Source: a virus. From it: a DNA stretch of 64,000 bases. A model generated the notes under the pieces. That model was not told the origin of the DNA, did not search any database, and saw only the letters and a program-made list of their open reading frames with translations. The position numbers were made by a program, and so were the translations under genes. The stretch lies in the IMG/VR virus record IMGVR_UViG_3300005805_000044, one strand, 5' to 3'. Positions 62,021 to 63,250 of this stretch are shown piece after piece. Within the stretch, counting starts at the first letter, position 1. Every line of letters begins with the position of its first letter.

Positions 62021-62865
62021 GCGTGAGATTACCGCCTAAATTGTTGACCTTTAGTTGTATTATACCTATCTTGCGGACAGGCTTCCCAACTTATCCACGA
62101 TTACGACTTGCGCCTATAATCGTATCCAACATGACTGCCTTTTTAGGGTTGTGGCTTATCAACCTTAACCTAGAACTATTCAACCTTCATCCATCCGTCT
62201 GCCTTCGACAGCAGTTAAGTCTTGCGGACACCGTTCAGACTCCGATTAACAACTAGTGTCTTGCGGACATTTCGTTGTCTGTGTTATCTTTCGACCACAG
62301 AGTTAAGTCACTTTCATCCTAGACAAACAACGACTTTGCGTTTTTGTATATATGAACTGGATTTGAACCAGCAACACATAGCTTTACATAGCTATTACTC
62401 TACCATTGAGTTATCATGCACCTAACAATGACGTGCGTTGTTTGTCGTTTCATATCCTTTTGGGATACAATATGCGACACGCCATTTGTGTTTCTCTTGC
62501 GGATACTTCACCGATTTTCAAGATTAAGTCCCTTGGTTGGCCTTTGGTCCTCTTTCTATCAATCTACATACGAGCATTTGATTGCGGTCTCACACCCGTA
62601 TCTTTGGCTTAAATCTTAATCTTGGATGTTTTGCTGTGAGCAGTGGTCGGCGGCGCCGTTACCGAATGTATGCCAGTGTTACCCACACACACTCTTTTTC
62701 TCACCATCGTCAGACATACCTCCACCTTTTGGATGAAGGTCACAGACTTTGCCATTTGCTTGAGTGTCCTAGTTGCCCAGGCGAGGATCCGTTAGGGGAT
62801 TACCTCTTTCATGAATATTACTACTCACTATCTTATATGGAGTTCAAGCACCCCAAATCTTTTTA
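62021..62865 (-). ncRNA. Large ornate ncRNA, GOLLD-like (~850 nt)
   Basis: No minus-strand ORF; GC-richer than flanks; recurrent GUCC-GCAA-GAC and other GNRA hairpins; next to a tRNA cluster; embedded tRNA-like domain; ends are approximate. Confidence 0.75.
62348..62420 (-). tRNA. Degenerate tRNA-like domain embedded in the large ncRNA (8-nt loop TATGTAAA, no CCA)
   Basis: Canonical D-arm ACTC-AATGGTA-GAGT and T-arm GCTGG-TTCAAAT-CCAGT; imperfect acceptor stem. Confidence 0.7.
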
Positions 62866-62878
62866 CTTACAAAGAACG
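62866..62878 (-). promoter_or_regulatory. boxA-like antitermination element CGTTCTTTGTAAG
   Basis: Matches the rrn boxA core (Y)GYTCTTT; lies between a hairpin leader and the ncRNA. Confidence 0.5.
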
Positions 62879-62955
62879 TTTGATGGATTCGGTTCCTAGT
62901 CACTCTTTTAAGTTGAGCTACAGTCTCAACTCCATCTAAATCTTATTGTTCATAC

Positions 62956-62984
62956 ATCTTATGACCGTCTTTCGGTTTTGTCAA
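62956..62984 (-). promoter_or_regulatory. Sigma70 promoter P2, TTGACA-N17-TAAGAT
   Basis: Consensus -35, 17-nt spacer. Confidence 0.85.
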
Positions 62985-63045
62985 CAACTTTTTGAATCTT
63001 TTTTCGATTCGTTCGTTGTTGAAATACGAACTTGATTGTCTTTAT

Positions 63046-63074
63046 ACTCTACATCAACAATCACTTTGTGTCAA
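63046..63074 (-). promoter_or_regulatory. Sigma70 promoter P1, TTGACA-N17-TAGAGT
   Basis: Consensus -35, 17-nt spacer. Confidence 0.75.
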
Positions 63075-63088
63075 CTACTTTCTTAAAG

Positions 63089-63166
63089 TGGCACACCCGG
63101 CAGGATTCGAACCTGCAATCTTCTCGTTAGAATCGAGTTGCTTTAGTCCAGTTTAGCTACGAGTGC
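63089..63166 (-). tRNA. tRNA-Arg(TCT)
   Basis: Loop ATTCTAA, CCA. Confidence 0.9.
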
Positions 63167-63173
63167 ATTAAAA

Positions 63174-63250
63174 TGGTAGGGTAGAGGAGATTCGAACTCC
63201 TGACCTTCTGTGTGTAAAACAGACGCTCTCCCGAATTGAGCTACCACCCC
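63174..63250 (-). tRNA. tRNA-Val(TAC)
   Basis: Loop TTTACAC, CCA. Confidence 0.92.

Follow-up and report, generated by a model that had tools for sequence, protein, structure and literature searches.

In bacteria, transcription of the ribosomal RNA (rRNA) operons (rrn) is assisted by an antitermination complex that assembles on a short leader element termed boxA: NusB and S10 bind the nascent boxA, and the complex that they form with NusG and NusA is described as resisting Rho and pausing and as tethering the 5′ end of the transcript, which aids co-transcriptional folding (PMC13753749, PMC10250234, PMC8632103). The boxA consensus is given as UGCUCUUUAACA for E. coli and as AUGAUCUUUGAAA for B. 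subtilis, in whose rrn leader a small 5′ hairpin is followed by boxA (AUGAUCUUUGAAA) with NusB binding shown (PMC13753749), and the gammaproteobacterial consensus is given as GYTCTTTAANA (PMC5725501). Outside rRNA operons, boxA was reported upstream of suhB and other non-rRNA genes in a 2017 survey that excluded non-coding RNAs (PMC5725501), and a one-line mention places it at CRISPR arrays (PMC13753749). The GOLLD RNA forms 14-mers, its 5′ domains make many bridges, and ribosome binding in pull-downs is mentioned; the word antitermination is not used in this cryo-electron microscopy paper (Kretsch et al.). The subject of the present work is the leader (62866-63074) of a GOLLD RNA encoded in 64,000 nucleotides (nt) of viral DNA, the IMG/VR virus record IMGVR_UViG_3300005805_000044, whose whole stretch is called the window below. 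An initial annotation, made from the letters of this DNA, had named two promoters (P1 and P2), a hairpin and a boxA-like motif in the leader and had likened it to the leader of an rrn operon, from which it predicted that the RNA would be expressed early and at a high level. These elements, which all lie on the minus strand of the window, were re-located here and compared across loci. On the basis of this comparison, the leader of the phage nanocage RNA GOLLD is read, with moderate confidence, as an rrn-like leader that would load Nus factors. A literature search, outside which the 2009 discovery paper and all supplements fell, revealed no report joining GOLLD with boxA or antitermination.

The boxA-like motif at the 5′ edge of GOLLD

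A boxA-like element, CGTTCTTTGTAAG, was found at 62878-62866 (minus strand), at the first conserved position of the GOLLD transcript. It contains the 9-mer CGTTCTTTG (62878-62870), which the initial annotation had placed directly before the RNA and which indeed stands where GOLLD homology starts; its 8-nt core GTTCTTTG occupies 62877-62870. In the nhmmer comparison, the homology of the 5′ half begins at query position ~201-212, corresponding to 62888-62877 of the window, i.e., at the motif, and this start is shared by several relatives (L049, L043, L046/L052, L036 and L032). The motif is kept in the alignment as TGTTCTTTGTA, GTTCTTTGAA and TGATCTTTGTT, and the DNA upstream of L043 and L046 is unalignable. 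The consensus at the GOLLD 5′ edge reads AAA(A/C)GTTCTTT(G/A)AAA and agrees with the published boxA sequences of E. coli, B. subtilis and gammaproteobacteria. The window sequence CGTTCTTTGTAAG likewise fits the boxA consensus, which is GYTCTTTAANA in gammaproteobacteria and GUUCUUUGAAA or GAUCUUUGAAA in other bacteria. The form GATCTTTG, a point of likeness to the B. subtilis leader, is present in L043, L140 and L119.

Searching IMG/VR with a three-block pattern derived from the conserved GOLLD 3′ end yielded at least 80 loci; 73 of the 80 listed viral matches were GOLLD according to an iterated nhmmer profile and 7 were not. A looser pattern applied to contigs of named bacterial genomes yielded 77 loci, of which 54 matched the nhmmer profile and 23 had no nhmmer match. 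Among the matches listed, to which all survey counts refer, 123 sequences matched the GOLLD 3′ profile. Forty-one of these were set aside because the 3′ match was cut or fewer than 600 nt lay upstream, and the remaining 82 full-match sequences were merged by shared 11-mers into 54 non-redundant clusters. The strict boxA pattern G[TC]TCTTT[GA] was searched on the sense strand in a zone 320-560 nt before the Rfam-matched part, and its background rate was taken from the remaining 971 kilobases (kb) of the same loci (97 matches, 0.10 per kb).

The strict motif was present at the GOLLD 5′ edge, in sense orientation, in 25 of the 54 clusters, which amounts to 25 matches against 1.29 expected, with none antisense. 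The variant GTTCATTG, with A in place of T, occupied the GOLLD edge in 7 further clusters. The window's own family comprises 12 sequences in 8 lineages (WIN, L080, L184, L179, the L049 group, L182 and the L043 group among them), and boxA was found in all eight. The initial annotation had named a lack of conservation of the 9-mer upstream of homologues as evidence against its reading; the outcome favours the annotation, since the motif recurs ahead of most relatives while its flanks diverge.

Within the window alone, no element exceeds chance. The pattern TTGACA-N17-TANNNT occurs exactly twice in 64 kb when both strands are counted, namely as P1 and P2, and shuffled sequences contained 2.0 such patterns on average, with at least two in 55 of 100 shuffles. 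Moreover, 58 window sites score at least 10/12 with a −35 box of at least 5/6, and GYTCTTTR occurs 11 times against 10.4 expected. Because the window elements are at chance frequency, the question was settled via the other loci, and the above-chance case rests on placement (both promoters within 120 base pairs (bp) of one strand, directly before the RNA) and on the cross-locus comparison.

The leaders of host rrn operons were read after 16S genes had been located in GOLLD-carrying genomes. Among 18 genome loci tested, nine carry a GOLLD above the Rfam cut-off (3 from Mycobacterium, 4 from Verrucomicrobiota or Opitutales and 2 from Gammaproteobacteria). Eight Bacteroidota loci score 104-139 bits, below the Rfam cut-off of 150; since they match over the full model length with E values of 1e-26 to 1e-36, they are clear GOLLD relatives despite these scores. 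The rrn leader boxA reads GGTTCTTTGA(A/G)A in both Verrucomicrobiota genomes, GTTGTTTGAGAA in the one M. colombiense genome and GTTCATT(G/A)A in six of the seven Bacteroidota-labelled genomes with enough leader. The seventh, a metagenome-assembled genome (MAG) labelled Chitinophaga pinensis, reads GCTCTTTGA, and two further Bacteroidota rrn leaders were unreadable, being cut by contig ends. Among the Bacteroidota rrn leaders (L159, L161-L163, L166-L168 and L170), the boxA of these six genomes has an A where other phyla have a T; its distance to the 16S gene is 133-223 nt, and in many cases a TAnnTTTG promoter box precedes it.

The window core GTTCTTTG is the same as that of boxA in the rrn leaders of both Verrucomicrobiota genomes compared. 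The window GOLLD is nearest to copies in Verrucomicrobiota-labelled bins, which make up the top 10 of the genome loci, a kinship that fits its GTTCTTTG core; we infer the host of the window from this GOLLD kinship only. Of the clusters that bear the motif, 7 have the form with A at position 5, all of them Bacteroidota-labelled, and the other 21 lack this form (Fisher p = 1e-4); four Bacteroidota-labelled GOLLD loci keep GTTCTTTG. The variant GTTCATTGA is common to Bacteroidota rrn leaders and the GOLLD copies resident in these genomes. Finally, the motif of L017, GCTCTTTAAGA, has the gammaproteobacterial form, and the GOLLDs most similar to that of L017 are found in phages of Stenotrophomonas and Xanthomonas.

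Promoters, hairpin module and surroundings of the RNA

Two promoter-like sites precede the motif, with the spacing of 90 bp between the −35 boxes that had been noticed initially. P1 (63074-63046, minus strand) consists of TTGACA (63074-63069), a 17-nt spacer and TAGAGT (63051-63046), and P2 (62984-62956, minus strand) of TTGACA (62984-62979), a 17-nt spacer and TAAGAT (62961-62956). The predicted starts would lie near 63039 (P1) and near 62949 (P2), which places boxA 162 nt and 72 nt downstream of them, respectively. The hexamers of both promoters are kept in 7 of the 8 family lineages while the spacers diverge: the P1 hexamers are found in WIN, L080, L184, L179, the L049 group, L182 and the L043 group, at P2, six lineages have the same −10 box TAAGAT, the −35 box is TTGAC(A/G/T), and the spacer carries substitutions. 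In L043, where the DNA cannot otherwise be aligned, there are again two tandem promoters (12/12 and 10/12), similarly spaced. The rrn-type tandem layout, with two sigma-70-type promoters ~100 bp apart and in the same orientation before the RNA, is thus present in the window.

Further sequence features accompany the two promoters. An inverted repeat between P1 and P2, GTTCGT-N9-ACGAAC (63031-63011, minus strand), is kept in most lineages aligned and could serve as an operator or fold into a hairpin in RNA started at P1. An A-rich tract (63010-62985, minus strand), in which the block AAAG(A/T)TTC(A/G)AAAAAG(T/A)TG is kept in 6 lineages, immediately precedes the P2 −35 box and is possibly UP-element-like. 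A UP element and a G+C-rich discriminator are features of the E. coli rrn P1. No G+C-rich discriminator was seen in the window, because the stretch between the −10 box and the predicted start, GTATGAA, is A/T-rich. The P2 spacer (within 62956-62984) holds a small inverted repeat, CCG-AAAGA-CGG, which is kept or replaced in relatives (GCAC...GTGC in L182) and could be a regulator site.

The hairpin module, 55 nt long (62936-62882, minus strand), was found as originally described: GATGGA (62936-62931) and TCCATC (62887-62882) close an inner hairpin made of AGTTGAG (62931-62925), a loop (62924-62918) and CTCAACT (62917-62911), and three A's separate the module from CGTTCTTTG. It is present in nearly identical form in 4 of the 8 family lineages (WIN, L080, L184 and L179), with one compensatory change, in L080 (GTTGAT/ATCAAC). 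The minimum-energy fold of the leader retains the inner hairpin and loses the GATGGA/TCCATC closure. In comparison with L049 and L178-L182, the module has the look of a sequence cleanly inserted between P2 and boxA or deleted from there; a small mobile or recombined element is a possible origin. As a module, the predicted hairpin is optional. The boxA of the L049 group begins 13 nt downstream of the P2 −10 box and hence lies at the very start of the predicted transcript.

Across the leaders of other loci, the motif comes after either a promoter or the 3′ end of a transfer RNA (tRNA), and in many leaders this tRNA 3′ end stands a few to ~30 nt before boxA. A TAnnTTTG box of the Bacteroidota type was found within 200 nt upstream in 11 of 33 leaders in sense orientation versus 2 antisense. 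The 45 nt upstream of boxA are more structured than random sites of the same loci (mean z −1.48, n = 33, versus −0.28, n = 264; p = 2e-7), a difference that is partly due to tRNA arms. The general layout, as predicted from these loci, begins with a promoter or a tRNA, in many cases followed by a hairpin; an A-rich linker leads to boxA and GOLLD, so that the order is as in rrn leaders and spacers. Two other assignments of the motif, to a −35 box and to a −7 box of the Bacteroidota type, were dropped, since on inspection the sequence fits neither.

The RNA that follows the leader is a GOLLD by its Rfam match. Its 3′ part (62487-62020, minus strand) reaches 208.2 bits against RF02032, above the curated cut-off of 150, across the whole model (positions 1-416), and contains a tRNA-like insert (62421-62346, minus strand) reported as an odd tRNA by ARAGORN. 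The 5′ domain (62865-62488, minus strand) lies outside the Rfam model, is homologous to L080, L049, L043 and L046/L052, and shows compensatory changes at 39 of 113 predicted pairs in an RNAalifold analysis of 5 family members. Its first conserved hairpin (GGGGT / GCTTGA / ACTCC, 62854-62839, minus strand; RNAalifold columns 41-56) has compensatory changes at 2 of 5 pairs. The GOLLD body (62021-62842) is covered by metatranscriptome contigs from four runs of four studies, the longest of which (865 nt, depth 39) covers 62021-62842; the 5′-side ends of these contigs differ (62801, 62573, 62734 and 62842). The GOLLD region therefore occurs in RNA libraries, and the transcript 5′ end lies at or upstream of 62842. 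The stretch 62843-63200, comprising the leader and the tRNA, is in no contig of the four runs, which is not evidence of absence. Contigs of runs X19 and X20, which belong to two studies, extend past 62021 by 10 and 42 nt with the same sequence, which is unlike that of the window; the relatives in those rivers and lakes therefore differ directly downstream of the RNA.

Upstream of the leader, a tRNA-Arg ends at 63089 (minus strand), 14 nt before the P1 −35 box. The first downstream terminator-like site, a 10-bp stem followed by a T run, was found at 58987-58960 (minus strand), and no other minus-strand terminator-like site lies between 62020 and this one. Five co-directional open reading frames (ORFs), which gave no Pfam match above cut-off, and a tRNA array lie between GOLLD and this site. 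The leader may thus serve a unit of ~4 kb that comprises GOLLD, the 5 ORFs and the tRNA array and ends at 58987-58960. Sigma-70-like sites are also found just upstream of two other tRNA arrays on the minus strand of the window, at 51390-51417 (TTGACA-16-TATAGT, 11/12) and at 59328-59356 (TTGACG-17-TATACT, 10/12), and the GYTCTTTR scan of the window revealed no boxA near either of them. The RNA genes of the phage may all use host-type promoters.

GOLLD copies were also seen in other settings. In the jumbo phages Stenotrophomonas RAS14 and Xanthomonas XacN1 and X1, GOLLD (L174 1504-1929, L175 1404-1817 and L176 1404-1833, respectively; 180-227 bits) lies in unannotated stretches among tRNA genes, with a near-consensus sigma-70 promoter ~480-500 nt upstream. 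In XacN1, a transfer-messenger RNA (tmRNA) of the permuted or beta type (L175 11-430, 108-123 bits) stands ~1 kb upstream of GOLLD, an arrangement that echoes the set of tmRNA, tRNA arrays and GOLLD in the window. A 2-kb Opitutia contig (L134) carries tandem GOLLD copies at 513-933 and 1357-1781, which score 177 and 202 bits, above the Rfam cut-off. YrlA-like (Y RNA-like) matches at L099 3778-3845 and L150 4867-4951 (44 and 38 bits, against a cut-off of 69) adjoin GOLLD and tRNA arrays of Flavobacteriaceae chromosomes. The nearest virus record, a 61-kb fragment (G001), has no GOLLD. Searching cultured phages by blastn gave tRNA matches only (24 records) for the GOLLD region of the window and no match for L004, and a search for Firmicutes copies with the Rfam GOLLD model gave 0 matches in 151 genomes from the phylum to which a Clostridia MAG belongs.

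Weighing the proposed Nus-loading leader against its alternatives

If the leader loads Nus factors as proposed, host RNA polymerase with the main sigma factor would start at P1 and P2, and some transcription may enter from the tRNA array that ends 14 nt upstream of P1. The optional hairpin module would be transcribed and then boxA, which would be single-stranded at the first conserved position of the RNA. Host NusB-NusE(S10) would bind the nascent boxA and form, with NusG and NusA, an rrn-type antitermination complex. This complex would resist Rho and pausing over the ~850-nt untranslated RNA, and the 5′ end, tethered near the RNA exit, would help the ornate fold to form during synthesis. Transcription would probably continue through the five small ORFs and the tRNA array to 58987-58960.

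A number of observations weigh against this proposal. Outside the window's family, a sigma-70 match of at least 10/12 within 250 nt was found in 4 of 33 leaders, with 2 antisense, and sigma-70 promoters as a general feature ahead of the GOLLD boxA were therefore dropped. The rrn-like P1 and P2 of the initial annotation hold for the family and not beyond it; the predicted tandem promoters are specific to the window's lineage. Of the boxB-boxA pair to which the leader had been likened, boxA is supported by the comparison across loci, and the hairpin is not an established boxB because neither the L049 group nor L182 has it; furthermore, folding of the leader RNA is no better than that of shuffles (z = 0.06). 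The recommended survey of GOLLD upstream regions, positive as it was for the strict and variant clusters, left 16 of the 54 clusters without a recognisable motif. Six others have only one-off forms, which were deemed unreliable since they are barely above background (12 matches versus 4 expected, 6 antisense). Neither the generic nor the mycobacterial boxA form was found in the mycobacterial GOLLDs (3/3), and the GOLLDs of the cultured Xanthomonadales phages (3/3) have no boxA in the zone. A Verrucomicrobiota-labelled subfamily near the window's RNA reads GTCATATATCAAA at the motif site. This subfamily (L081, L082, L094, L103 and L157), in which the site lies ~20 nt before the first GOLLD hairpin, consists of Verrucomicrobiota-labelled bins and one bin labelled Chitinophaga, and it looks like a case of boxA loss with the RNA retained. 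The candidate boxA is frequent in GOLLD, not required.

The comparison with host rrn leaders also has its adverse side. The window motif departs from the rrn sequences after the core, reading GTAAG versus GAAAA or GAGAG. In GOLLD and rrn cores of the same genome, identity was found in 2 of 6 cases (G002 and G003, both GTTCATTGA), and the cores of the other four (G008, G007, G004 and G014) differ at 1-2 positions. The comparison with the host-phylum boxA that the initial annotation had called for gave agreement for the Verrucomicrobiota core and the Bacteroidota variant, partial agreement within single genomes, and none for the mycobacterial GOLLDs. The seven A-variant loci are, moreover, relatives of each other, and host labels are lacking for the viral contigs. 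Finally, a gap of 28 nt separates the end of the longest RNA contig from the boxA-like motif, and RNAalifold pairs the motif with a downstream segment, CAAGAGAA.

This last point bears on the possibility that the motif is a structural strand without any Nus role, in which UUCUUUG would either pair with CAGAGAG or CAAGAGA, a purine tract shortly ahead of the 3′ part, and so close the 5′ domain, or make a tertiary or inter-chain contact of the cage; we consider this unlikely. In the alignment of 5 family members, RNAalifold pairs motif columns 14-21 with columns 406-414, where CAAGAGAA stands ahead of the 3′ part, and a purine tract at a fixed offset (−8/−9, −12 or −19) before the 3′ part is found in 27 of 33 leaders, with 5-7 of 7 pairs possible. 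Conservation at an edge can also reflect tertiary contacts, and the published 5′ domains form many bridges (Kretsch et al.). However, all predicted pairs between the motif and CAAGAGAA are invariant, without covariation, whereas a plain helix would covary, and the motif keeps one sequence among 5′ domains that are otherwise unalignable. The A variant is mismatched with its partner in 7 of 7 cases, although the search was permissive and favoured pairing, and position 8 is an A opposite a C in 4 of the 7 A-variant loci. The duplex energies of motif and purine tract equal those of control segments, and in the window's family the partner overlaps a hairpin with a CGCAA loop. Moreover, the motif variant appears to follow the host rrn boxA type, and one subfamily has lost the motif and kept the downstream hairpin. 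The pairing is also compatible with a Nus-tethered 5′ end that aids a long-range helix.

The frequent position of the motif a few to ~30 nt after a tRNA 3′ end, its A/U-richness with flanking A runs and, as a weak hint, the RNA contigs that cover GOLLD only would suit a processing or 5′-end site, at which an endonuclease frees GOLLD from the tRNA or the leader and no Nus factor is loaded. This is quite improbable in our estimation, as no known nuclease consensus is matched, processing leaves the boxA identity and the Bacteroidota variant common to rrn leaders unexplained, and removal would be needless in the L049 group, whose motif is ~6 nt away from the predicted P2 start.

The motif might also act on the finished RNA, each protomer of the cage displaying a NusB-S10 (or S10/ribosome) site that captures host factors. 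The motif is indeed the first conserved part of the RNA and not part of the diverged leader, and S10 is both NusE and a ribosomal protein. The formation of 14-mers and the mention of ribosomes in pull-downs (Kretsch et al.) would agree with such a role. Against it stand the longest RNA contig, which ends 28 nt before the motif, and the many GOLLDs without the motif, and binding to the finished RNA is itself inferred, so that this role appears very doubtful. The chances are just as slim for a combined version, according to which the GOLLD 14-mer would be built by a hijacked rRNA antitermination/chaperone complex and retain boxA, thereby offering 14 NusB-S10 sites as a sponge or docking platform for S10, NusB and ribosomal particles; if it were true, the function of an orphan RNA would be tied to host ribosome synthesis during infection. 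A merely accidental likeness of the window's arrangement as a whole, which the chance frequency of every element within the window would allow, has a next to negligible probability in view of the strand- and position-specific enrichment across loci (25 versus 1.3 expected) and the conservation of the promoter hexamers in the family lineages.

The Nus-loading leader thus remains the preferred reading, and boxA at the 5′ edge offers a concrete hypothesis for the making of GOLLD, an RNA known for years whose cage structure has been solved. If this reading is true, it predicts host factors that bind the leader, mutations that abolish the full-length RNA, and a dependence of the yield on Rho and NusB. 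To the targets of boxA, which comprise rRNA, operons of lambdoid phages, genes of the suhB type and CRISPR arrays, it would then add a phage-borne family of structured RNAs that occurs in several phyla. For the expression or engineering of GOLLD cages in cells, the leader may affect both yield and folding.

Comparison with known boxA systems

The window leader resembles an rrn leader in that tandem promoters, a hairpin and a boxA core precede a long structured untranslated RNA, and its core is identical to the rrn boxA of Verrucomicrobiota. In addition, many GOLLD loci have boxA after a tRNA, and the second boxA of rrn operons follows the spacer tRNAs. The rrn complex consists of NusB, NusE/S10, NusA and NusG, in E. 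coli also of SuhB and S4, whereas Nus loading at the window leader is predicted from sequence. Moreover, the product of the GOLLD locus is a phage nanocage RNA and not rRNA, no boxC was identified and no leader-trailer processing helix was found in the window leader, and the hairpin is dispensable (present in 4/8 lineages). In contrast to the E. coli rrn P1, the region from the −10 box to the predicted start is A/T-rich instead of G+C-rich. The rrn leader of B. subtilis shares with the window the order of hairpin and boxA near the 5′ end of the transcript, but it belongs to other organisms and another product, and the hairpins have no sequence in common.

A lambda-type nut site presents a phage-borne boxA in the nascent RNA and uses the host Nus machinery, as the window leader is proposed to do. 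In lambda, boxA precedes boxB, to which N binds, whereas in the window an optional hairpin precedes boxA; the order in the window is therefore that of rrn and not that of nut. With its hairpin upstream of boxA, the window leader does not classify as a lambda nut site, no search for N-like proteins having been made, and the next hairpin downstream of boxA is a conserved part of the GOLLD fold and not a boxB. Finally, GOLLD resembles the non-rRNA targets of boxA, as in both cases boxA would stand ahead of a long untranslated transcript otherwise exposed to Rho. Those targets are cellular genes of Gammaproteobacteria, whereas the GOLLD element is phage-borne, occurs in several phyla and appears to vary with the boxA type of the host.

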